Assembly (NCBI GenBank): GCA_039917895.1
Contig: JBDSIO010000301.1
Span: forward strand, 1 to 52,011
From: Fibrobacteria bacterium
GTDB taxonomy: Bacteria > Fibrobacterota > Fibrobacteria > UBA11236
Length of the DNA stretch: 52,011 nucleotides
Reading direction: 5' to 3'
Position 1 is the stretch's first letter. The number at the start of each line of letters is the position of its first letter. The position numbers were made by a program, and so were the translations under genes. Positions 1 to 9,984 of the stretch are shown here, in pieces. The notes beneath the pieces are model-generated. The model ran no database searches, was not told the DNA's origin, and was given only the letters and a program-made list of their open reading frames with translations.

Positions 1-1048
1 CTAGTTGGCCGAAGGCCTTGGCGTTGCGGGGATCCAGCCTGACCACCTTGCGGAAAGCGGCTTCGGCATCCTTGTAGTCGCCTTCCAACTGGGCTTTGCG
101 GCCGGAAAGGTAGACGGCGGGAACATAGTCGGGCTTTAACTTCAAGGCGGCGGTCAAGGCGCTGCCGTACCCATTGCGGCCAGGCCCCATTTCAACTTCC
201 ATGGTCCCCAGGGTAGTGAGCATGGCGAGGTTATCAGGATGCGCCTTGAGCGCGGCATGGGCGCCAGCGAAAGCCTTTTCGATTTCACCCATGCGGTATT
301 GGGCTTCCACTGCTTGCACGCGCACCGTCATTTCCTCGGGGTTTAGCGCGAGGACCTGTTCGGCCGTGGCCAAGGCTTCCTGGTAGTTGGCCGTGCCGAG
401 AAAAACGTCCGTGGCCATGGCCAGCAAGGGAATTTCCCGGGTCGGTATGGCCAGCACTTTGCGAAGCGGGACGACGGCCTTTTCCAACGAACCGGCATCA
501 TACAGAAGTTCGACCACCTGACGAAGCGCCGCGAGTTCATCGCGGGAAGGCTGATAACGGGGCTCTTCCCCTTCGGATCCGGTGTCGCTATGTGCGTCGC
601 CATGTGCATCGCCATGTCCGCCGGCATGTCCCAGGGAGTGGCCTTTGGGTGCCTCCCCTTCTCCGCCATCCACGTTTGCTGCGTGAACCGGTTCGTTGTG
701 GCCCGCTTCCGGGTCGGCGCCATGTAGGCCTTCGCCGCCGCCATCACCCTCGCCAGCCTCCGGATTTCCGTGATGTTCCGCTTCGGAAACGCTGGCGAGG
801 GATACGCCGTGATCGCCTATGTCTCCGCCCGGAGCCTCCGCGCCCTCATGCCCGGCATGGCCGGAAGCTTCCATGGCTCCGTCATGGCCATGTCCATTCG
901 CCTCCCCGGCACTCAGTTTGTGTTTCACCAGGAAAAAGGCCGCGCCGGATCCCGCCCAGACCACCACGGAAAGGATTCCCACGAGTTTCATGAGCTTGGC
1001 GCCGCGTGGACGCTTTTCGGAAAACCTCTTTTTCATCTTGGCCAGCAT
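1..1048 (-). CDS. Membrane-anchored TPR-repeat protein with His/Gly/acidic linker (3' end runs off the window)
   Basis: Absent from the ORF track; translated by hand from ATG 1048 (GAGGG upstream): MLAKMKKRF...KLVGILSVVVWAGSGAAFFLV (TM), a His/Gly-rich linker, then TPR-like helices (NYQEALATAEQVLALNPE; GDYKDAEAAFRKVVRLDPRNAKAFGQL). No stop before position 1. Confidence 0.85.
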   Translation of the reverse strand, partial: MLAKMKKRFSEKRPRGAKLMKLVGILSVVVWAGSGAAFFLVKHKLSAGEANGHGHDGAMEASGHAGHEGAEAPGGDIGDHGVSLASVSEAEHHGNPEAGEGDGGGEGLHGADPEAGHNEPVHAANVDGGEGEAPKGHSLGHAGGHGDAHGDAHSDTGSEGEEPRYQPSRDELAALRQVVELLYDAGSLEKAVVPLRKVLAIPTREIPLLAMATDVFLGTANYQEALATAEQVLALNPEEMTVRVQAVEAQYRMGEIEKAFAGAHAALKAHPDNLAMLTTLGTMEVEMGPGRNGYGSALTAALKLKPDYVPAVYLSGRKAQLEGDYKDAEAAFRKVVRLDPRNAKAFGQL

Positions 1049-1092
1049 CGGGACACCCTCGGCCCGATCGGAAAGCGGATCCGGCCCCTGAG

Positions 1093-1122
1093 ATTCTAGG
1101 GGCAGGATCGGTGTTTGAGCAA
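1093..1122 (-). promoter_or_regulatory. Putative sigma70-type promoter for the TPR gene
   Basis: Minus strand TTGCTC-N18-TAGAAT, about 45 nt upstream of ATG 1048. Confidence 0.5.
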
Positions 1123-1154
1123 GACTTACAGTGGTTTGTCAAACCCCGGGATCG

Positions 1155-1261
1155 CAAAAAACCGGGCGGCTGCCTCCGTAAACCCCGGTCACTAGCGACC
1201 AGGGGGGAGGCCTAGTTGGGTTTTAAGCGGGGTCGGAAGCAAAGCAAGCGCCTACCGACCC
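1155..1261 (-). terminator. Tandem hairpins downstream of rlmB, possible intrinsic terminator
   Basis: Stems GGGTCGG/CCGACCC (1230-1261) and GCCTCC..GGAGGC (1172-1211), with a T6 run shortly after on the minus strand. Confidence 0.35.
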
Positions 1262-1265
1262 TGCC

Positions 1266-2192
1266 TCAGGTCCCTCGACCGTCGCCGCTTTCCCCAGCCT
1301 CGCCGAAGCTCCCGGGTTGCAGGGAGTAGAACTTCGGCCGGTCCGAGGTGAAGCGGCTGAAATTGGAGGCGCGGTTGGCTTCGTACAGCATCAGGGACAT
1401 GGCCACGCCGGCGTTGAAAGAATGCGCGCCGGGAGCCATGGGGATCTTGACTACGTAGGTGCAGGCGCGGCGGATATGGGGCGGGATGCCGCGGTCCTCG
1501 CCGCCGACCACGAGCACGACGGGGCCGTCATACTTGCCTTTGGTCAATTCCACCTCGCCGTCCTCTTCCAGGCCGATGATGGTGTAGCCTTCGTTGCGCA
1601 GGCCTTTCAATTCCTTTTCGATGTCGCCGACCTGGCAGATGGCGATCGACTCGAGCGCGCCGGCGGCGGTCTTGGCCACGGCGGGCGTTAGTCCGGCATT
1701 GCCTTTATTGTGGGACAGCACCACATCGGCGCCCATGCACACGGCGGAGCGGATGATGGCGCCCAGATTGCGCGGATCCTCGATGGCGGCAGGCACAACG
1801 ATCATGGGAGCATAGCCGGCGCGCTTGGAGGCGACCAGTTCCTTCTTTACGCTTTCCCAATCGTCCCAGGAGCGCGTATTGCAAAAGGCGAGCACGCCTT
1901 GATGGGCGCCCTTGTACCATTGGTCGAGACGGGCCTTGGGCAATTGGTGCACGCGGATCTTCTGCGCGTCAGCCATCTTCTGCAGTTCGTGCAGCTTATG
2001 GTTCTGGCCGCCATGCAGCAGGACCAAATGGTTGATTTTGCCGGGCGAACCGCGCAGCAGGGCTTCCACGGCGTGGACACCGGCTATGATGGATGTTTCG
2101 TCGACTTGCTTGGGCATTGGGACCTCAGGGATTCGTTGGGGCGATTCTTGTTTGGCCGGGGGCCCGGGCTGCCGCTCCGGAATCGTCGCCAT
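1266..2192 (-). CDS. rlmB: 23S rRNA (guanosine-2'-O)-methyltransferase, TrmH/SpoU family
   Basis: IAGVHAVEALL N-terminal domain, IEDPRNLGAIIRSA, VVGGEDRGI and IPMAPGAHSFNAGVA SPOUT motifs. The start could be 2117 (MPKQVDE). Confidence 0.9.
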   Translation of the reverse strand: MATIPERQPGPPAKQESPQRIPEVPMPKQVDETSIIAGVHAVEALLRGSPGKINHLVLLHGGQNHKLHELQKMADAQKIRVHQLPKARLDQWYKGAHQGVLAFCNTRSWDDWESVKKELVASKRAGYAPMIVVPAAIEDPRNLGAIIRSAVCMGADVVLSHNKGNAGLTPAVAKTAAGALESIAICQVGDIEKELKGLRNEGYTIIGLEEDGEVELTKGKYDGPVVLVVGGEDRGIPPHIRRACTYVVKIPMAPGAHSFNAGVAMSLMLYEANRASNFSRFTSDRPKFYSLQPGSFGEAGESGDGRGT

Positions 2193-2219
2193 GCCCCTCG
2201 GATCCGGGGGGGGGGTCGC

Positions 2220-3440
2220 CTATCTGGGCGAGCGGGCTGCTGTGCCTGCGGCAGCGGGAACTTCGGCTTCCACGGAATGCTTGCGGATCTGATCGAAGAA
2301 TTCTTCGAACAGATAGTGCGAATCCTTGGGGCCCGGCGACGCTTCCGGGTGATATTGCACCGAGTACGCGGGCAGGCTGCGATGGCGAAGCCCAGCGACG
2401 GTCTGGTCGTTCAGGTTGATGTGGGTGACTTCCACGGTCTTGGGGTCCAGGCTCTTCGGGTCCACGGCGAAGCCGTGGTTCTGGGAGGTGATTTCCACCT
2501 TGCCCGTGCGCAGGTCCTTGACGGGATGATTCGCCCCGCGATGGCCGAACTTGAGCTTGAAGGTGTCGCCGCCCAGGGAGCGGGCCAGCAATTGATGCCC
2601 AAGGCAGATGCCGAAAATCGGCTTCTTGCCCAGCAGGCCTTTGATGGTGTCCACGGCATAGTCGAGCAGGGCCGGATCGCCCGGGCCGTTCGACAGGAAA
2701 ATGCCGTCGGGCTTGATGGCGAGGATGTCCTCGGCCTTGGCGTCCGCGGGGAATCGCACCACCTCGGCTCCCAGGCTTTGCAGCTTACGGAGGATGTTGT
2801 ACTTGATGCCGTAGTCCATGGCCGCGACCTTGAATAAAGGTTTGTTGTCGGGAATCGGGCGAAAGCTCAGGGCATTCTCGGGTTCGTCCCAGCCCTCCTG
2901 CGCCGCAATCGTGACTTTTTTCACGAAGTCGATATGCGTGAACGAAGGAACGGCCTTGGCCTTGGCCAGCACGGCGGTCAGATCATAATCGCCCGTCACA
3001 ATCAGGCCGTTCTTGGCCCCCGTCTCGCGCAGGATACGGGTGAGGCGGCGTGTGTCCACGCCCATGATGCCGGGAATGTTGTTCTTCTTCAGGTATTCCG
3101 AAAGCGACCAGGGATGCACGGCCCGGCCGTCGTCGGCGCGCCAGTTGGACGGGTACTCGCAGCAGTTCTTGACCACCAGCCCGGAAACCTGGATGCGCTT
3201 GGACTCCACGTCCTCGGGATTGATGCCGTAATTGCCGATTTCCGGGTAGGTCAGGACAACGATCTGTCCCGAGTAGGAGGGATCGGTCAGGATTTCCTGA
3301 TAGCCCGTCATGGAAGTGTTGAAACAGACCTCCCCTCCTGAAACTGGTTCGGCCGATCCATTTTCAGCCCCATTGCGCTCGGCTCCGAAGGATTCCCCTT
3401 CGAAATAGTTTCCGTCTTCGAGGGCGAGTATGGCTTTCAT
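2220..3440 (-). CDS. carA: Carbamoyl-phosphate synthase small subunit
   Basis: GEVCFNTSMTGYQEILTDPSY, LSNGPGDP, GICLGHQ (catalytic Cys), QYHPEASPGP. Confidence 0.97.
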   Translation of the reverse strand: MKAILALEDGNYFEGESFGAERNGAENGSAEPVSGGEVCFNTSMTGYQEILTDPSYSGQIVVLTYPEIGNYGINPEDVESKRIQVSGLVVKNCCEYPSNWRADDGRAVHPWSLSEYLKKNNIPGIMGVDTRRLTRILRETGAKNGLIVTGDYDLTAVLAKAKAVPSFTHIDFVKKVTIAAQEGWDEPENALSFRPIPDNKPLFKVAAMDYGIKYNILRKLQSLGAEVVRFPADAKAEDILAIKPDGIFLSNGPGDPALLDYAVDTIKGLLGKKPIFGICLGHQLLARSLGGDTFKLKFGHRGANHPVKDLRTGKVEITSQNHGFAVDPKSLDPKTVEVTHINLNDQTVAGLRHRSLPAYSVQYHPEASPGPKDSHYLFEEFFDQIRKHSVEAEVPAAAGTAARSPR

Positions 3441-3528
3441 GCGAAAATCTCCGAATCATCAGCGAATTGTCAGAACGGTCCGAAAAGGCGAATAGTCCGA
3501 ATCGTAATAAAGACGCGTGGTGGAAGGG

Positions 3529-4422
3529 CTAGACATCGCCGCGCGAGGCGGAAAACACCTGGATCCTCTTGTCAGTAATGACCGCGTCCATTAATTGGTC
3601 ATGCGGGTCCAAAGTTAGGTTTTTCTGGGTGATTTGCACGTCGAATCCAAGCCCAGCCCGCATGCAACGTTGGCCGGCCAGATACCGGTCATAGAATCCC
3701 TTGCCTTTGCCCAATCGCCCGCCTCGGGAATCGAAACAAAGCCCGGGAATCAGCGCCAGATCGGGCTCCGGAGCTTCTCCCGACCGCAGCGCCGGGAGCG
3801 GTTCCTGGATGCCGAAGGCGCCTTCGGCCATGTCTTTTTCCAAATCCAAGACCCGGGCCATACCCAGCACCTTGGGTATTGAAGGCTTGGGAACGCCCGC
3901 TGCGGCGCCGACGCCTTGTGCAGACGTACGTAATGCGTCCATCCCCCCGGCGAGGTCGTCCCCGCTGACCGTCAAGGGAAAGTCCATAACATAAGGCATC
4001 AACAGGGTTTTGCCGTCCGCCAGTATCCGGCGCAGCAGGGGTTCGGTATCGATCTCCTCCAGGTTGCCGGAAAAGGCGGCCACCACCTTCGCATTCTTGT
4101 ACGAAGGCCACTCAGTGACCTGGGCCACGAGGGCGAGGGCGGCGGCGGATCGTTCGGAGGAAGGAATGGCCTTGAGCCGCTCCTTGGCCCAGGCGCGCAT
4201 GCCCGCTTTGTCGTGCTGGACCTTTTCCCGTTTGTCGCTGGCCTCCGATTCCAACGTCAGAGTTTCCAATTGCGATTTCACATCCGACTGGATCTGCGAC
4301 ACTTTACGTTTCAGCTTCCCGAACTCGCGCATCACCTTGCCAAGCTCCTTGGGTTTGACCAGCACCACCACAAGGGCGACGACGACGCCGAATTCGCCGA
4401 TACCTAAGGAGTCGAAAATCAT
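3529..4422 (-). CDS. Fusion: N-terminal TatB/TatA-like TM plus amphipathic helix, C-terminal 5-formyltetrahydrofolate cyclo-ligase (YgfA/MTHFS family)
   Basis: MIFDSLGIGEFGVVVALVVVLVKPKELGKVMREFGKL is TatB-like and the gene follows tatC. Then EIDT, GAFGIQEP, PDLALIPGLCFDSRGGRLGKGKGFYDRYL and DPHDQLMDAVIT are cyclo-ligase motifs. Start set at ATG 4422. Confidence 0.85.
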   Translation of the reverse strand: MIFDSLGIGEFGVVVALVVVLVKPKELGKVMREFGKLKRKVSQIQSDVKSQLETLTLESEASDKREKVQHDKAGMRAWAKERLKAIPSSERSAAALALVAQVTEWPSYKNAKVVAAFSGNLEEIDTEPLLRRILADGKTLLMPYVMDFPLTVSGDDLAGGMDALRTSAQGVGAAAGVPKPSIPKVLGMARVLDLEKDMAEGAFGIQEPLPALRSGEAPEPDLALIPGLCFDSRGGRLGKGKGFYDRYLAGQRCMRAGLGFDVQITQKNLTLDPHDQLMDAVITDKRIQVFSASRGDV

Positions 4423-4441
4423 GGGAGGAACCGGCGCCCTT

Positions 4442-5167
4442 TCATACAACCTCTCTTTTCTTCTGAGCCAACGCACAGATTCCAATAGAGAACAGATACA
4501 GCACAATCAATGGAATTGCCATCATGATCTGCGAGACTGGATCCGGTCCCGGCGTGAGCAGCGCCGCCACGGCGAAGATGACGATGACGGCGTAGCGGAA
4601 GAAGCGCCACATGCCTCCGGCCGTGATCAGACCCATATTGGCGAGCACGTAGGCGACCACGGGAAGCTCGAAAATGATGCCGAAGGCGAGCATGAACTGG
4701 CTGATGAAGGAAGCGAAATCGCCCTGACGCCAGTTCTGGGTTATAGCGCCCTTGGTGTAGGTCGCCAGAAAGGCGAGCCCGGCCGGCAGGACGGCGAAAT
4801 ACGCAAAGGCGGCGCCAGCGGCGAACATGACAATGGAGGAGAAGAAGGCGATACCGAAGACCTTCTTTTCATTGGCGAACAGGGCCGGAGCCAGGAATCG
4901 CCAGACGTTCCACATAATCCAAGGGAAGGAAATGATAATGCCCGAGATTAGCGACATTTTGAAGCTGGTCATCACCGTCTCCATCGGGGAAATGGCGATC
5001 AGGTCCACGTGAAGATGCTGCTTGGTGAGTGGGTAGGAGATTACGAACCAGATTTTCTCCCAGAATCCATAGGCGAGAGCAGCCGCGGCCACAAGGCCGA
5101 TCAGGATGCGGATCAGGCGGGAACGGAGTTCTGAGATGTGGTCCCAGAAGGTGAGTTGGGAGTCCAA
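4442..5167 (-). CDS. tatC: Twin-arginine translocase subunit TatC
   Basis: LTFWDHISELRSRL, FLAPALFANEKK, FGIIFELPV, AALLTPGPDPVSQ; about 6 TM segments. Confidence 0.96.
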   Translation of the reverse strand: MDSQLTFWDHISELRSRLIRILIGLVAAAALAYGFWEKIWFVISYPLTKQHLHVDLIAISPMETVMTSFKMSLISGIIISFPWIMWNVWRFLAPALFANEKKVFGIAFFSSIVMFAAGAAFAYFAVLPAGLAFLATYTKGAITQNWRQGDFASFISQFMLAFGIIFELPVVAYVLANMGLITAGGMWRFFRYAVIVIFAVAALLTPGPDPVSQIMMAIPLIVLYLFSIGICALAQKKREVV

Positions 5168-5232
5168 GCGCGTAAAGGAGGGGGAGTGGAAGGGGAGGGA
5201 TCGGGTTCGGGCAAGTCCGGACCCGCATCGAC

Positions 5233-5433
5233 TCAGGACTTCGGGATTTCCTTGTTGTCCGACTTGGCGTTCTTGTCCTCGGCTTCGGTTTCATGACCGG
5301 CCATGGAGTTTTTGAAATCGCGGATACCCTTGCCCAGGCCCTTGGCGATTTCCGGAATCTTTCTTCCGCCAAAAAGCAGTATTACGATCAACAGGATGAT
5401 GATGAGTTCAGGTGCACCTAGATTTCCGAGCAT
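5233..5433 (-). CDS. tatA: Twin-arginine translocase subunit TatA/E
   Basis: MLGNLGAPELIIILLIVILLFGGRKIPEIAKGLGKGIRDFK; GGAGG RBS before ATG 5433. Confidence 0.95.
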   Translation of the reverse strand: MLGNLGAPELIIILLIVILLFGGRKIPEIAKGLGKGIRDFKNSMAGHETEAEDKNAKSDNKEIPKS

Positions 5434-5622
5434 ATCGACCTCCGCGCTGGATTGCTGCAAGTATAGCAAAAAGGGGTACCCGGCGCTTGTCATGCCGCGT
5501 TGCAGCCTGTTTTACACGGAAATAAGGGTGACAGCTTGACTGGACTTCAGGTCTTTGATGCGCGGTTCGACGCTTGGGCGGCAGGTCTGCCAGGAAGCCC
5601 GAAGGCAGGATTGGTGTCTGAG

Positions 5623-6786
5623 CTATGCCGGGGGCGGGGGGGATTCCGGTTTTGCAAGCCAGGCATCCAGGAGCAAGCCTTCCTGCCACTTCATCCATTT
5701 GGCGGCCGCCATCATCATGGGACGTGAGTTCGCCCCGGTCAGGGCGACGGCGGTCAGGGTTGATTTGGTGGCCAACAGGGAGGCATCGACCTTCAGCTCC
5801 TCGGCAATCCGATCCCGTACAGTCTTGAGATGGTTCAGAATGATGGAACTGGGGCTGGGCGCGATCTTGCGGGGCAGACGCAACGGTTGCGGCCACTCCT
5901 TTTCCCCTATTGTCAGCGCCTGTTCGAAAGTCTCCAAGTATCCGGAACGGATCTTGGGACTGAGGCGCGAAGGCAGGGAGGGGACTTGCGCGGGCGCCCC
6001 GTCTTCGGGCACCGCCAAGGCGAAGCGCAGCAGAATGTCCGACGGGAGAACCTTGTAGCTGGGAAGATCGAGATCCTTGGCGGTCTGATCCCGGAACTTC
6101 CAGAGGGCCTGTAGGGCGGCTAGCTGGCGCGGATACAACTTCGAAGAGCCGTCGATGCGCCAGGTGTTTTCCAGGTCCACGACCTTGGAGTTCGCCGTCG
6201 CCTTCACAAGTTCAGCGCAGGTTTCCTCATGCCATCCGAGCCGGTTCTTCTCTTCCAACTCCTTGGTGAGGGCTTCGTAAAGTCCGGGCAGGAAAAAAGT
6301 ATCCTGGGCTCCATAGTGGAGCATAAGGGGGGGCAAAGGACGAAGGGACCAATCCGCCTTTTGCTGATCCTTCTTCAGGGTTACGCCGAAATAGGCCTGG
6401 ACAAGGGCGGCGAGGCCGAATGCCGGTTTTCCCAGCAGCTGCGCGGCCAGCATGGTATCGTACACCTTGTGGGGGCGGAATCCCGACGCCTGGTAAAGCA
6501 TCCGCAGGTCGTAATCCGCGCCATGGAGCACCAGCACTTTTCCGGCCAACTTGTTCAGAAAGCCGTCCAACTCGATGTCACTTAAGGGATCCACCAGGTA
6601 GCAACGGTCATTTACCAGAATCTGAATCAGGCAGATTTTCGCGTAGTAGTGATGCATGCTGTCCGCTTCCAAATCCAGGAACACGATATCCGTGCCGTCC
6701 ATGGCTTTCAAGAGCGCAGCCATACCCGCTATGCCGTCAACGTAATCGATAGGATAGGTGGGAGGAGGGGGGTGAATCATGCTCAA
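5623..6786 (-). CDS. rnd: Ribonuclease D (DEDD 3'-5' exonuclease plus HRDC domain)
   Basis: LDLEADSMHHY, LHGADYDL, DTMLAAQLLG, DWSLRPL, YGAQDT; HRDC-like LWKFRDQTAKDLDLPSYKVL. The start may be 6780. Confidence 0.9.
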   Translation of the reverse strand: MSMIHPPPPTYPIDYVDGIAGMAALLKAMDGTDIVFLDLEADSMHHYYAKICLIQILVNDRCYLVDPLSDIELDGFLNKLAGKVLVLHGADYDLRMLYQASGFRPHKVYDTMLAAQLLGKPAFGLAALVQAYFGVTLKKDQQKADWSLRPLPPLMLHYGAQDTFFLPGLYEALTKELEEKNRLGWHEETCAELVKATANSKVVDLENTWRIDGSSKLYPRQLAALQALWKFRDQTAKDLDLPSYKVLPSDILLRFALAVPEDGAPAQVPSLPSRLSPKIRSGYLETFEQALTIGEKEWPQPLRLPRKIAPSPSSIILNHLKTVRDRIAEELKVDASLLATKSTLTAVALTGANSRPMMMAAAKWMKWQEGLLLDAWLAKPESPPPPA

Positions 6787-7059
6787 AGGAACCGCGGCGT
6801 CATAAGTGGCTTTTTATCTCTCCGCTGCAAGTCATTTCATCTCAATAGGTTATCAAAAACGTAAAAGGCCCATTCCAACAAGCGGACCGGAAGCTGAAAA
6901 GTACAAAAATTCGATTTTAAGGAGGGATATTTCTGAAGCCTGAAATGAAAACCGAACCGCGTATTCATTGTGGATGTAGCGAAGGTAGGCAAAATGGCGC
7001 TCTCGGCAAGAATTCTAGATTTACCGGCCCGGGACAGAGCGGGAACGGAAAGGGACGGG

Positions 7060-8055
7060 ATGGCATTGCGGGCGTTGACGGGAATCAAACCAACGGGCGA
7101 ACCTCATTTGGGGAACTGGTTGGGCGCGATCAAACCCGCATTGGCGCTGGCGTCGACCTTTGAAACCTATTACTTCATCGCCGACTACCATGCGCTGAAC
7201 AGCATCTACGACCCCGAGGCGCTGCGCAGGAATACGCTTTCCATAGCGGCCACCTATCTCGCTTTCGGTCTCGATCCGCATCGCTCGGTCTTCTATTGCC
7301 AGAGCGATATTCCTGAAGTGTTCGAACTCGCCTGGATCCTGTCCTGCTTTACGCCCAAAGGCCTGATGAACAGGGCGCATTCCTACAAGGACTCGGTCGC
7401 CAAGAACCTGGCGGCTGGCAAGGATACGGATCAGGGCATCAATATGGGGCTGTATTCCTACCCCATATTGATGGCGGCCGATATCCTGATTTTCTCCGCC
7501 AACGTAGTGCCGGTCGGTGCGGATCAGAAGCAGCATGTGGAAATCGCCCGCGACATCGCAAGCGCCATCAACCACACATACCAGACAGAACTCTTCACGT
7601 TGCCGGAACCCCGCATCGATGAGCAGGTCAAGACCATCGTCGGTTTGGATGGCCGCAAGATGAGCAAGAGTTACGGCAATACCATTCCCCTGTTCCTGGA
7701 TGAGAAGCAGATGTTGAAGCGCATCAACCAGATCGTGACGAACTCGCAGGGGCCGGAAGAGCCCAAGGAGCCCGACCTAAGCTCCGTGTTCAACCTGCAC
7801 AAACTGATATTGACGGAGGGCCAGGAGTCGCAGATGCGCAGCCGGTACCAGGCCGGAGGCATGGGGTGGGGACAGGCGAAGAAGGATTATTTCGAATCAC
7901 TCAACGCACTTTTGCAGGGACCCCGCAAAGAATATCAGCGTTTGATGGCGGATCCGGCGGCGCTGCGGTCGATCCTGGCGAAAGGCCGGGACCAGGCGCG
8001 CGCGCAGGCATCCGTTTTTTTGGACAAGGTGCGCGGCGCCATCGGTATACGGTAA
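7060..8055 (+). CDS. trpS: Tryptophan--tRNA ligase
   Basis: TGIKPTGEPHLGN (HIGH-like), YPILMAADIL, VPVGADQKQH, KMSKS. Start chosen at ATG 7060. Confidence 0.96.
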   Translation: MALRALTGIKPTGEPHLGNWLGAIKPALALASTFETYYFIADYHALNSIYDPEALRRNTLSIAATYLAFGLDPHRSVFYCQSDIPEVFELAWILSCFTPKGLMNRAHSYKDSVAKNLAAGKDTDQGINMGLYSYPILMAADILIFSANVVPVGADQKQHVEIARDIASAINHTYQTELFTLPEPRIDEQVKTIVGLDGRKMSKSYGNTIPLFLDEKQMLKRINQIVTNSQGPEEPKEPDLSSVFNLHKLILTEGQESQMRSRYQAGGMGWGQAKKDYFESLNALLQGPRKEYQRLMADPAALRSILAKGRDQARAQASVFLDKVRGAIGIR

Positions 8056-8072
8056 ATAACAAGGAGATCCCC

Positions 8073-8687
8073 ATGAGCTTCACACTGGAAACCGGCGCCC
8101 TGGCGCCGGAATTCGACCTGCCTGACGTATACGGACGCACCCACAACTTCACCGACGTGATGGGCGCGAACGGAACCCTGGTTTTCTTCACATGCAATCA
8201 TTGCCCATACGTGATCGGCAGCGAGGACCGCATGAAAGCGCTTTTCAACACCTGCGAGAAGCTCGGGATCACCATGACGGCGATCCATTCCAATGAGACC
8301 AAGGATCATCCCGAGGATGATTTCGAGGCTGTGAAGGCGCGCGTCAAAGGGAAGGGCTTCCGGTGGCTGTCCCTGCGGGACGACCAACAACTCGTGGCCC
8401 GTGCCTACGGGGCCGAGCGCACACCCCATTATTTCCTCTTTGGCAAGCTCGGCAATCTGGTCTATTCCGGACGCATGGACAACAGCCCCCGCGACGCCTC
8501 CAAGGCCGAAACGCACGAACTCCAGGACGCCATCGCGGACATGCTAGCCGCCCGTCCCGCCAAGCTGGCGCGCACGGACGCCATCGGCTGCAACATCAAG
8601 TGGTGGGACAGGGAAAAACATTGGATGCCCAAAGATGCCTGCGATCTTGATTACCTCTATCAACGGGAGTCGACCAGCCGGGCTTAG
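8073..8687 (+). CDS. Thioredoxin-fold AhpC/TSA-like redoxin
   Basis: APEFDLP, FTCNHCPYV (CxxC), AYGAERTPHYF, YSGRMD, IGCNIKW; AAGGAG RBS before ATG 8073. Confidence 0.9.
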   Translation: MSFTLETGALAPEFDLPDVYGRTHNFTDVMGANGTLVFFTCNHCPYVIGSEDRMKALFNTCEKLGITMTAIHSNETKDHPEDDFEAVKARVKGKGFRWLSLRDDQQLVARAYGAERTPHYFLFGKLGNLVYSGRMDNSPRDASKAETHELQDAIADMLAARPAKLARTDAIGCNIKWWDREKHWMPKDACDLDYLYQRESTSRA

Positions 8688-8709
8688 AGCCCCGGCGGCC
8701 GACCGGCCC

Positions 8710-9984
8710 GTGAACGAGAAGGGGAAGCCCGTTTCCCGGGATGGGGGAGCTGCCGGCGGCGGCTATCGCGTCCGGCAGGAAATGAATCCGGGAAACCGGT
8801 TCGATGCGGTTAAAATTGAATGGGAAGACGGCGTGGATCTGCCCCAGACCTTGAAGATCCACGAGGAAATCGCGCGCAGCATCGTCTCCGAGAACGACAG
8901 CCCGGACATCCCTTTCCGTTACAGCGTGAATCCCTACCGCGGCTGTGCCCATGCCTGCGCCTATTGCTATGCGCGTCCCAGCCACGAATACCTGGGCATG
9001 GGCGCGGGCACCGATTTCGACACCCAAATATACGCCAAGACCAATGCCGCCGACCTGCTGCGCAGGAAGTTCGCTTCCAAAGGCTGGACGCGTGAGCCCA
9101 TCACTTTCAGCGGCATCACCGATTGCTACCAACCCGCGGAAAGCCGGCTCAAAATCACGCGCGCCTGCCTGGAAGTCTGCCTGGAGTTCAAGCAGCCGGT
9201 TTCCATCATCACCAAATCGACTTTGATCCTGCGCGATCTGGATCTGCTCACGGCCCTCGATCGGGAAGCGGGTGCGGGAGTTATCCTGTCCATCCCGTTC
9301 GCCGACGAAACCACCGCCCGTTTCATCGAGCCCTTTGCGGCGCCGCCGGAGCTGCGTTTCCGCGCCCTGGAAAAGCTGTCGCAAGCGGGCTTGCGAACAG
9401 GGATCTCACTGGGTCCGGTGATTCCCGGCCTCAACGACAGCGACATTCCCTCCCTGTTGGCGCGCGCGAAGGAATGCGGGGCCGGTTTCGCGTTCTACGT
9501 CATGCTGCGCCTGCCCGGCAGTGTCCGCGAAGTATTTCTGGAGCGCGTCCGCAAGCATTTACCGGAAAAGGCAGGAAAAATCGAGCATCATATCCGTGAA
9601 GTGCGCGGCGGAGATCTCTACCAGACGGATTTCAGGCACCGCATGTCCGGGACCGGAACCATGGCGGACATGGTGGACAAATTGTTCCGCATCCATGCCC
9701 GCAAACACGGCCTGGACATCGGAGAGCGCATGGAAGACCTGGAAGCCCGCAGCGCGGGAGAGGGCATGGCCGGTCCGAACCTGGGACGGAGCCTGCGGGG
9801 CAAGCAAGGCGGATCGGACGGAAGTGATCAGGGTGCAGCTTGGGTTGAAGCCCGGGAAACCGAAGGCGGGGCCACAGGGCGGATGGAAAACCGAACGTCC
9901 GGGGCGTCGGTTAGGAAACCGGGGAAGAGCCCGAAGGGCGCCAAAAAAATCGATCCGGGACAATTGGATTTGTTCGCGACGTGA
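8710..9984 (+). CDS. PA0069/Rv2578c-type radical SAM protein (SPL-related family)
   Basis: NDSPDIPFRYSVNPYRGCAHACAYCYARPSHEYL (CxxxCxxC), TDCYQPAE, GPVIPGLND; ends in QLDLF. Start uncertain (GTG 8710 or ATG 8782). Confidence 0.9.
   Translation: MNEKGKPVSRDGGAAGGGYRVRQEMNPGNRFDAVKIEWEDGVDLPQTLKIHEEIARSIVSENDSPDIPFRYSVNPYRGCAHACAYCYARPSHEYLGMGAGTDFDTQIYAKTNAADLLRRKFASKGWTREPITFSGITDCYQPAESRLKITRACLEVCLEFKQPVSIITKSTLILRDLDLLTALDREAGAGVILSIPFADETTARFIEPFAAPPELRFRALEKLSQAGLRTGISLGPVIPGLNDSDIPSLLARAKECGAGFAFYVMLRLPGSVREVFLERVRKHLPEKAGKIEHHIREVRGGDLYQTDFRHRMSGTGTMADMVDKLFRIHARKHGLDIGERMEDLEARSAGEGMAGPNLGRSLRGKQGGSDGSDQGAAWVEARETEGGATGRMENRTSGASVRKPGKSPKGAKKIDPGQLDLFAT

Follow-up and report, generated by a model that had tools for sequence, protein, structure and literature searches.

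The gene behind tatC in Fibrobacteria bacterium (GCA_039917895.1) joins a predicted TatB-type module to a complete 5-formyltetrahydrofolate cyclo-ligase (MTHFS) in a single open frame. We consider it likely that the product is one bifunctional membrane protein, which would serve as the organism's only TatB and would also, tethered to the membrane, carry out the housekeeping reaction of MTHFS, neither half having need of the other. The fused gene occurs across the phylum Fibrobacterota, nearly always beside tatC.

The tatA-tatC locus and the fused gene

The window, i.e., the whole stretch of DNA analysed, comprises 52,011 nucleotides (contig JBDSIO010000301.1). The host is a soil bacterium of the Fibrobacterota. 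Within the window, tatA, tatC and the fused gene lie consecutively, all on the minus strand (Table 1), and gene calls and family matches bear out the order tatA-tatC-[tatB::cyclo-ligase]-carA-rlmB that a preliminary description, made from the sequence alone, had proposed without naming a strand. The uninterrupted reading frame after tatC that was reported there also holds, with 297 codons and neither a stop nor a frameshift at the junction. The frame is open over 3529..4506 (-), and the conserved start of the fused gene is the ATG at 4422, from which the protein begins MIFDSLGIGE, 19 nt past the tatC stop. The TatC protein was aligned to Aquifex TatC (4b4a_A, E 1.7e-42), and its T205 and Q213 were near-invariant inside LTPGPDPVSQ across 19 TatC sequences. 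A promoter/terminator scan of the minus strand over 3300-5700 found none, and no RNA family was matched by an Rfam search of positions 1-9000.

Table 1. Positions of the fused gene, its parts and the neighbouring genes in the window
Feature	Position	Strand	Basis or remark
RNase D gene	5623..6786		upstream of tatA
tatA	5233..5433	-	66 aa + stop; ATG at 5433; PF02416 65.5 bits, TIGR01411 tatAE 64.1 bits
tatC	4442..5167	-	241 aa + stop; TTG start; PF00902 213.4 bits, TIGR00945 200.6 bits
Fused gene, TatB-like module + MTHFS	3529..4422	-	297 aa; TAG stop 3529-3531; single open frame
Predicted short transmembrane helix, residues 8-22	4357..4401	-	AF2 model helix 8-22; E10, then 12 hydrophobic residues F11-V22
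Hinge K23-P24	4351..4356	-	P24 invariant; AF2 model kinked at residue 23
Predicted amphipathic helix (~25-45) + helical connector (46-71)	4210..4350	-	hydrophobic moment; AF2 model
MTHFS (5-formyltetrahydrofolate cyclo-ligase) domain, residues 72-297	3532..4209	-	PF01812 104.7 bits (cut-off 27), TIGR02727 113.5 bits (cut-off 84.9)
Variable loop insertion in MTHFS domain, ~146-186	3865..3987	-	absent/different in most homologues; pLDDT ~50
Nucleotide-binding motif GGRLGKGKGFYDRYL, residues 234-248	3679..3723	-	aligns to same motif in solved MTHFS structures
carA	2220..3440	-	downstream of fused gene
SpoU/RlmB-type methyltransferase gene	1266..2192	-	downstream of fused gene, past carA

The fusion is real and not an artefact. 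The junction, for which read support had been suggested as a check, is bridged without a single indel by contigs of two sequencing runs (X1 record 5, 3992-4897; X2 record 9, 4015-4279), X1 possibly being the source sample. Moreover, 98 near-full-length homologues of the fused protein come from many assemblies, and the 72 genomes with a full-length profile match include single-contig genomes such as G023, G025 and G032. All of this stands against an assembly or frameshift error. A Met at the domain boundary (Met75, present in 21/39 homologues) might serve as an internal start from which MTHFS is made separately, but 15 of the 39 have no Met at all within residues 55-85, and we regard two separate proteins or an artefact as highly improbable.

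The TatB-like N-terminal module

The first 71 residues (the N-module) were compared among 39 aligned homologues. F3, D4, G7, E10 and P24 are invariant in this set (E10 also in all 22 sequences of a second set), 38 of the homologues have a hydrophobic run of exactly 12 residues, and the N-module together with the junction is free of indels in 37. TatB E8, to which E10 corresponds here, hydrogen-bonds TatC T208 according to a passage of PMC13323110, and a run of 12 hydrophobic residues is described in part of PMC9424591 as a strictly conserved feature of TatA/B proteins. The hydrophobic moment peaks at 0.69 over residues 25-42, and the AF2 model gives one continuous helix from residue 24 to 85 (pLDDT 80-97). 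The motifs quoted in the preliminary description were all found, with K23-P24 at the hinge position in place of Gly-Pro, KELGKVMREFGKLKRK at 25-40 and RLGKGKGFYDR at 236-246. At residue 23 the homologues have K (13), E (11), D (13) or N (1) and never G, leaving no Gly-Pro hinge in the set. Since the stand-alone TatB-like protein of another genome of the phylum (G057) likewise has N-P at this position, the hinge without Gly is a trait of the phylum.

The N-module was then compared with the curated Tat families. PF02416 (cut-off 21 bits) gave no match to the fused protein at E<=1, and TIGR01410 scored it at 25.0 bits, below the 56.5-bit cut-off. An N-terminus failing Tat HMMs had been named beforehand as a reason to drop the TatB assignment, and read narrowly these two scores are such a failure; it is outweighed, however, by the homologues and by reciprocal profile searches. 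All 39 aligned homologues match TIGR01410 tatB and TatB_Rickett at E<=0.01, sub-threshold, with 1.1e-9 as the best value, while PF02416 is matched at this level by just 8 of the 39. When the full-length profile was compared with the PDB, TatB chains 9e02_F and 9e03_B and TatA chain 7b7o_A were matched at positions 6-65, a better result than that of a single-sequence search with the 75-residue N-module (a weak TatA match, 7b7o_A, E 0.013). The N-module profile, run against 1.84 billion representatives, gave 5949 matches, with the fused family first and then proteins of 100-250 aa aligned at residues 2-71. Forty non-fused proteins among the best 150 of the 5949 matches were scanned; TIGR01410 was the top family in 39/40 and was above its cut-off in 38/40, and tatAE came first in 0/40. 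A TatB-type match, sub-threshold, and a cyclo-ligase match above cut-off are found in one protein, the co-occurrence for which an HMM scan had been suggested.

The earlier observation that no other tatB is present in the locus extends to the whole 92.7%-complete genome. PF02416 is passed there by tatA alone, and an HMM of the N-module matched the fused gene itself (122 bits), tatA weakly (E 0.27) and nothing else. No other gene in the genome is a TatB candidate, and collectively the evidence from sequence comparison supports a TatB-type N-module directly after tatC.

Compared with TatB of E. coli-type TatABC translocases (TIGR01410; 9e02_F, 9e03_B), the N-module has the same short helix with a leading Glu and 12 hydrophobic residues, the same Pro-containing hinge and amphipathic helix, and the same clustering with tatA and tatC. 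The fused protein differs in falling below the curated cut-offs, in having K, E, D or N for the hinge Gly, and in the gene order tatA-tatC-tatB. In addition, the unstructured hydrophilic tail of E. coli-type TatB is replaced here by a folded enzyme of ~225 residues. Part of PMC13186574 states that TatA/B can do without the C-terminal domain, needing no more than anchor and amphipathic helix plus a few residues beyond.

The MTHFS domain, selection and distribution

The C-terminal part had been described as a complete cyclo-ligase with RLGKGKGFYDR, and this proved correct in that it scores over the curated cut-offs and both the fold and the motif are intact. G234, R236, G238, G240, G242, Y244 and D245 (GxRxGxGxGxYD) are invariant in 39/39 homologues, as are K72 and R76, whose counterparts in the alignment with human MTHFS are K10 and R14; we take these residues to have catalytic roles. 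The AF2 model of the fused protein (pLDDT 83.7) was matched by Foldseek to 2jcb_A (E 2.2e-16, TM 0.88) and also to the human MTHFS entries 3hy6 and 3hxt, and the PDB profile search matched the MTHFS part to 1sou, 2jcb, 3hxt and 1ydm. The fold, the Lys/Arg pair and the GxRxGxGxGxYD motif are thus those of stand-alone MTHFS (PF01812, TIGR02727; 2jcb, 1sou, 1ydm, human 3hxt), and the score lies above the equivalog cut-off. Whereas stand-alone MTHFS is a soluble protein of ~190 aa, the domain here is the C-terminal part of a predicted membrane protein and has a ~40-residue variable loop insertion. The genome holds one PF01812 gene, which is the fused gene; SHMT and a DHPS-type gene are also present. 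The C-terminal part is an intact MTHFS, the only one in the genome, and would be active. In public annotation, these proteins are named just '5-formyltetrahydrofolate cyclo-ligase'.

Purifying selection is stronger on the N-module than on the enzyme part. In five within-genus pairs with finite dS, omega lay between 0.04 and 0.09 for the N-module, against 0.12-0.21 for MTHFS, values that are approximate because dS is ~1.

A full-length profile match was obtained in 72/151 Fibrobacterota genomes, which are kin and some of them incomplete; tatC was present in 72/72 of these and adjacent in 69. At least 15 Fibrobacterota families have the fusion, which was absent from 76 MTHFS loci of other phyla among the matches listed. 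The suggested survey of the architecture across genomes accordingly agrees with the idea of a lineage-specific fusion. None of the 21 TatC-less Fibrobacterota genomes had a full-length match, and a soluble MTHFS without the N-module was found in 11 of the 12 TatC-less genomes inspected. In several lineages the two parts are split, or one is lost while the other is kept; in G057 and G044, for example, a stand-alone TatB-like gene follows tatC and MTHFS is encoded elsewhere. More distant fused proteins have longer connectors, with MTHFS starting at residues 62-129.

In one genus (g16), MTHFS carries a hydrophobic N-terminal helix in which the TatB (F-D/G-E) motifs are missing; tatA-tatC lies elsewhere in the genome in G035, and G116 has no tatC. 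That TatC-less genomes simply have a stand-alone MTHFS was ruled out by these helix-bearing proteins. Derivation of the g16 helix from tatA via internal deletion is conceivable.

Alternative readings and significance

In the explanation that we favour, residues 1 to ~45 (the 12-residue hydrophobic helix headed by Glu10, the x-Pro hinge and the amphipathic helix) would act as the sole TatB, binding TatC and forming with it the receptor core of TatA-TatB-TatC folded-protein export. The TatB tail, usually dispensable and unconserved, would have been swapped for an intact MTHFS via the helical connector. The enzyme would thereby be tethered to the TatBC receptor and would return 5-formyl-THF to the one-carbon pool, dependent on ATP, on the cytoplasmic side of the membrane. 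Most likely, tatB and an adjacent MTHFS gene became one early in the history of Fibrobacterota, and the fusion may persist because both halves tolerate it, export and folate recycling having no need of each other and the halves probably no functional coupling. Tat cargo candidates in the genome are a 1159-aa molybdopterin oxidoreductase (SRRSFIKG) and a pirin (SRRRFLG).

Two-component TatAC systems function without TatB, so the presence of tatA and tatC does not force a TatB function on the fused gene. The N-module might be a TatB-derived anchor without an export role, the fusion holding MTHFS at the membrane beside a two-component TatAC system. The sub-threshold Pfam and TIGR01410 scores and the loss of the hinge Gly are in line with this, and the g16 helix, which persists on MTHFS even in TatC-less G116, is a hint that attachment to the membrane may by itself be what counts. 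Furthermore, in a separate Bacillota cluster (ESM Atlas, 55 members; PF01812 + PF12822/PF07155), known from its automatic cluster description, MTHFS is joined to the S component of an ECF transporter, indicating that membrane-tethered MTHFS arose more than once. In that cluster MTHFS is likewise tied to the membrane, but it is paired there with a component for vitamin uptake, where the folate logic is obvious, whereas the partner here is a protein-export subunit. A generic anchor would nevertheless not be expected to hold five residues and the 12-residue run invariant, nor to evolve more slowly than the enzyme as the N-module does. Its closest stand-alone relatives are TatB proteins (39 of the 40 scanned among the best 150 matches), it was lost in 11 of the 12 TatC-less genomes inspected, and the split lineages retain it as a gene of its own right behind tatC. 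On balance, we think a mere anchor unlikely.

A closer bond between the halves is conceivable, in which MTHFS takes part in the work of the Tat receptor, either as a folded cytoplasmic cap, replacing the TatB tail, by which cargo is contacted or proofread, or as a link between export and ATP/folate status. Retention of the fusion in at least 15 families is consistent with such coupling, as is the AF2 model, in which one rigid helix runs through the hinge into the first helix of the enzyme, and the indel-free N-module and junction in 37/39 homologues imply a tighter constraint than would be expected of a neutral tether. A passage of PMC13673990, citing Taw et al. 2022, also mentions chaperone-like activity of TatB C-terminal regions on cargo. 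Several lineages, however, separate the parts or lose just one, and the connector varies in length in distant fused proteins. Because all catalytic motifs are kept and the genome has no second MTHFS, the domain would be needed as an enzyme anyway, and no biochemical link between 5-formyl-THF and Tat export is known to us or came up in the literature search. We judge coupling to be improbable, and very improbable in the specific form of three MTHFS domains on rigid helices under TatB3C3, a platform that would contact or proofread folded cargo or gate export by ATP/one-carbon status. Since split forms occur naturally, coupling is not obligatory, and we argue that the fusion represents joined neighbour genes.

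No published description of a TatB-MTHFS fusion was found in a search of the literature, partly at the level of titles and abstracts, on TatB with cyclo-ligase, Fibrobacter Tat and membrane cyclo-ligase fusions, in keeping with the statement in the preliminary description that no characterised example was known. The words 'fibrobacter' and 'folate' are absent from the text of a 2026 review of Tat evolution (PMC13673990).

The fusion can be seen as a natural, phylum-wide experiment, suggesting that a TatB-type anchor can have a folded enzyme of 25 kDa attached right behind its amphipathic helix. The enzyme would be placed at the cytoplasmic face, the side on which folded cargo docks, and this bears on structural models of the TatBC cage. 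If the halves were coupled, protein export would be linked to folate/energy status, and if the enzyme domain worked in export, Fibrobacterota TatB would be the first Tat subunit to contain an enzymatic or sensor domain of its own. Annotation as cyclo-ligase only hides the sole TatB candidate, and surveys would score most Fibrobacterota as TatB-less. As the evidence speaks rather for neighbouring genes whose fusion is tolerated, the practical value of the finding would lie mainly in correct annotation and in a structural test case for Tat.

The fused gene and its neighbourhood

The single uninterrupted frame that the preliminary description had placed after tatC was found on the minus strand. 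Translation from its conserved start, 19 nt beyond the tatC stop, gives P0001, a 297-aa protein with the N-terminus MIFDSLGIGE, in which a TatB-like module (residues 1-71, the N-module) is followed by a 5-formyl-THF cyclo-ligase (MTHFS) domain. The motifs claimed earlier were all located: K23-P24, KELGKVMREFGKLKRK (residues 25-40) and RLGKGKGFYDR (residues 236-246). The junction (nt ~4209) is likewise intact, being spanned without indel by independently assembled contigs from two public sequencing runs, namely record 5 of X1 (3992-4897) and record 9 of X2 (4015-4279, 0 differences); the runs, four in all, come from a single study, and the source sample may be X1. An internal start is not conserved: 21 of the 39 homologues have Met75, whereas 15 of the 39 lack a Met throughout residues 55-85; the reading that the frame yields two separate products is poorly supported.

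The N-module and junction were free of indels in 37/39 homologues, and the MTHFS domain of more distant fused proteins begins at residue 62-129, after longer connectors. Omega, computed against five congeners for which dS was finite (0.94-1.6, close to saturation), came to 0.04-0.09 over codons 1-71 and to 0.12-0.21 over the MTHFS part.

Two further observations concern the window. The tatC start is apparently TTG, and the aligned first codon is Leu in 9 of 18 aligned relatives (L009, L010, L012, L014, L021, L019, L006, L015 and L017), which suggests that a non-ATG start is conserved. An open-ended ORF encodes a long His/Gly/Glu/Asp/Ala-rich low-complexity stretch (HGHDG...GHAGHEG...GHGDAHGDAHSD), followed by a C-terminal region that looks helical-repeat; its product may bind metal.

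Features of the window and of the other loci discussed
Feature	Position	Strand	Remarks
ORF of the fusion	3529..4506	-	conserved start ATG 4422
MTHFS loop	3865-3987	-	residues 146-186
tatC	4442..5167	-	PF00902 213 bits, TIGR00945 200.6 bits
Apparent tatC start	5165-5167	-	TTG
tatA	5233..5433	-	PF02416 65.5 bits
RNase D	5623..6786		upstream neighbour
carA	2220..3440	-	downstream neighbour
SpoU/RlmB-type methyltransferase	1266..2192	-	downstream neighbour
Low-complexity ORF	2-1048	-	open-ended
Stand-alone TatB-like gene	L025:2199-2360	+	G057
g16 protein	L047:1966-2550	+	G116
g16 protein	L044:2149-2739	+	G035
Molybdopterin oxidoreductase	L068:2482-5958	-	G000 (the window's genome), contig C219
Pirin	L069:1228-2394	-	G000, contig C334

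The two domains of P0001

Residues 72-283 matched PF01812 with 104.7 bits (cut-off 27), and P0001 scored 113.5 bits against the equivalog TIGR02727 (cut-off 84.9). The profile of 39 homologues matched the solved MTHFS structures 1sou, 2jcb, 3hxt (human) and 1ydm at E values of 1e-28 to 4e-33, and the AlphaFold2 model of P0001 (mean pLDDT 83.7) was superposed on B. anthracis MTHFS 2jcb_A with an E value of 2.2e-16 and a TM of 0.88. K72, R76, G234, R236, G238, G240, G242, Y244 and D245, which we take to be catalytic, are invariant in 39/39 homologues, and K72 and R76 align with K10 and R14 of human MTHFS. Within the domain, a Gly/Ala/Pro-rich loop of ~40 residues with low model confidence is confined to the window's genome and those closest to it; elsewhere among the relatives this site has insertions that differ or are longer, as in P0057. 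Given that the fused gene is the one PF01812 gene above cut-off in the whole genome (92.7% complete), which also encodes SHMT and a DHPS-type gene, the enzyme stands in its usual housekeeping context.

The TatB-type N-terminus of the preliminary description failed at the curated cut-offs, as PF02416 did not match P0001 at E<=1 and TIGR01410 gave 25 bits, below its 56.5-bit cut-off; nevertheless, several independent lines assign the N-module to the TatA/B family and, within it, to the TatB side. At E<=0.01, each of the 39 aligned homologues matched both TIGR01410 and the Rickettsial TatB model (best 1.1e-9), and just 8/39 matched PF02416. The full-length profile matched the TatB chains 9e02_F and 9e03_B and the chloroplast TatA 7b7o_A over positions 6-65. 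A profile of the N-module alone (22 rows, alignment A3) was run against 1.84 billion representative proteins and gave 5949 matches at E<=0.001, with the fused family at the top and a second tier (50-57 bits) of 100-250 aa proteins aligned at residues 2-71. When 40 second-tier proteins were scanned, TIGR01410 ranked first for 39 of them and the Rickettsial TatB model for the remaining one; 38 exceeded the TIGR01410 cut-off, and tatAE came first in 0/40.

The physical features point the same way. Glu10, invariant in both the 39-homologue alignment and A3, corresponds to TatB E8, which an excerpt of PMC13323110 describes as highly conserved and hydrogen-bonded to TatC T208. In the cognate TatC, T205 and Q213 are nearly invariant within LTPGPDPVSQ and would be the counterparts of E. 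coli TatC T208 and Q215. The hydrophobic run after Glu10 is exactly 12 residues long in 38/39 homologues, and 12 consecutive hydrophobic residues are a strictly conserved TatA/B feature according to PMC9424591. The helix downstream of the hinge has a hydrophobic moment of 0.69. At the hinge itself Pro24 is invariant, whereas the preceding position, Gly in TatA/B, is K, E, D or N, the sole departure from the physical hallmarks of that family. In the AlphaFold2 model, residues 8-22 form a helix, the chain kinks at 23, and an unbroken helix 24-85, the rigidity of which may be overstated by a single-chain model, runs into the enzyme's first helix.

The claim that the locus has no other tatB could be extended to the genome: among 84,730 six-frame ORFs, the N-module HMM found, besides itself (122 bits), only tatA (E 0.27), and tatA alone passed PF02416. 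Two candidate Tat cargoes were identified. A 1159-aa molybdopterin oxidoreductase (N-terminus ...SRRSFIKGMGIAGG) carries the canonical Tat signal SRRSFIKG and is likely a major cargo of the system. A pirin (PF02678 and PF05726), a kind of protein usually located in the cytoplasm, has an apparent twin-arginine signal in which HSRRRFLGRL precedes a hydrophobic stretch and AYA.

Fused, split and lost forms

The homologue search listed 119 relatives, 98 of which cover >=97% of the query (262-345 aa), and bit scores fall sharply, from 209 to 109, between fused relatives and stand-alone MTHFS (~190 aa). Where an organism is named, as for four relatives, it is a Fibrobacteres, Fibrobacteria or Fibrobacterota MAG, and the sole annotation of the protein is '5-formyltetrahydrofolate cyclo-ligase'; both Pfam families were precomputed for 22/120 listed entries. 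A match was present in 40/41 related genomes. The unpublished genome G011 is one of these 41, one of the 22 A3 rows and one omega row, and no claim depends on it alone.

The full-length profile and PF00902 were cross-tabulated over 151 Fibrobacterota genomes. Full-length matches (beginning at profile position <=20) occurred in 72 genomes, all with tatC, which was adjacent in 69; the MTHFS part only was matched in 71 (tatC in 55), a partial N-terminal extension in 4 (tatC in 1), and nothing in 4 (tatC in 2). None of the 21 TatC-less genomes had a full-length match. Since the match adjoins tatC in 15 'MTHFS-only' genomes (genera g15 and g21), and inspection of one of them, G095, showed a divergent TatB-like module sharing a 312-aa frame with the MTHFS part, the true fusion count is probably above 72. 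Of a 72-member Fibrobacterota cluster in the ESM Atlas, 100% of the proteins carry PF01812 and 97% carry PF02416. Among the matches listed in a species-genome scan, which does not prove absence of the fusion outside Fibrobacterota, 3/3 complete fused loci were Fibrobacterota-type, and 76 MTHFS loci of other phyla had neither an N-module match nor a hydrophobic segment upstream.

A separate 55-member Bacillota cluster in the ESM Atlas (~353 aa) joins PF01812 to ECF-transporter S-component families (PF12822, PF07155). It is a second, independent membrane tether of MTHFS and suggests coupling to folate uptake.

Split forms were also found. In G057, tatA and tatC are followed by a stand-alone TatB-like gene of ~53 codons with an N-P hinge, non-Gly as in the fused forms, which, if functional, would encode one of the smallest TatB proteins; in G044, an 87-aa TatB-like frame follows tatC. 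MTHFS lies on a different contig from tatC in both. Among 12 TatC-less genomes whose MTHFS locus was inspected, 11 encode an MTHFS that is soluble and has nothing hydrophobic upstream of it. Two members of a single genus differ, in that G055 carries tatC and the fusion and G045 (100% complete) lacks both tatC and the N-module; their MTHFS domains are sisters (support 98/90). The fused (g15), helix-only (g16) and soluble (g18-g20, g24) forms of family f5 make up one clade (100/100) in the MTHFS tree, which is midpoint-rooted, leaves out the fused f14 genera and does not give the order of events. Two soluble f11 forms (L066 and L067, from G130 and G046) cluster with a Clostridiales sequence (97/83) and not with their own phylum, so the stand-alone MTHFS genes of these two genomes may have been replaced by horizontal transfer.

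Proposed roles of the fused protein

Genus g16 is an exception, and its forms are the main support for the view that the N-module is just a membrane anchor. Here the gene directly after rnd encodes a protein of 194-197 aa whose hydrophobic N-terminal helix (...IVIVILVLLIFGSSP...) is without the F-D/G-E TatB motifs; profile positions 72-99 (the first ~28), which include the conserved Lys/Arg, are missing from the MTHFS part of the protein. The protein is kept whether tatA-tatC lie elsewhere (G035) or were not found (G116), and could be a fusion remnant or a membrane-anchored MTHFS-like protein with changed function. A different possibility is that the enzyme domain has a genuine functional role in the Tat receptor, as TatB tails show chaperone-like activity according to an extract of PMC13673990; however, the split and loss forms speak against obligatory coupling of the two halves. 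A passage of PMC13186574, citing Lee et al. 2002, states that TatA/B can do without the C-terminal domain, an anchor, an amphipathic helix and a few further residues being all that they need, so the enzyme could stand in for the TatB tail.

No paper on a TatB-MTHFS fusion was found in the literature searched (supplements excluded). Automatic database clusters do show the architecture, under an annotation as MTHFS only. The best-supported reading of the sequence data is that P0001 is a bifunctional protein, the N-module of which would act as the sole TatB of a TatABC system, while its C-terminal domain would be the cell's housekeeping MTHFS, kept at the membrane.
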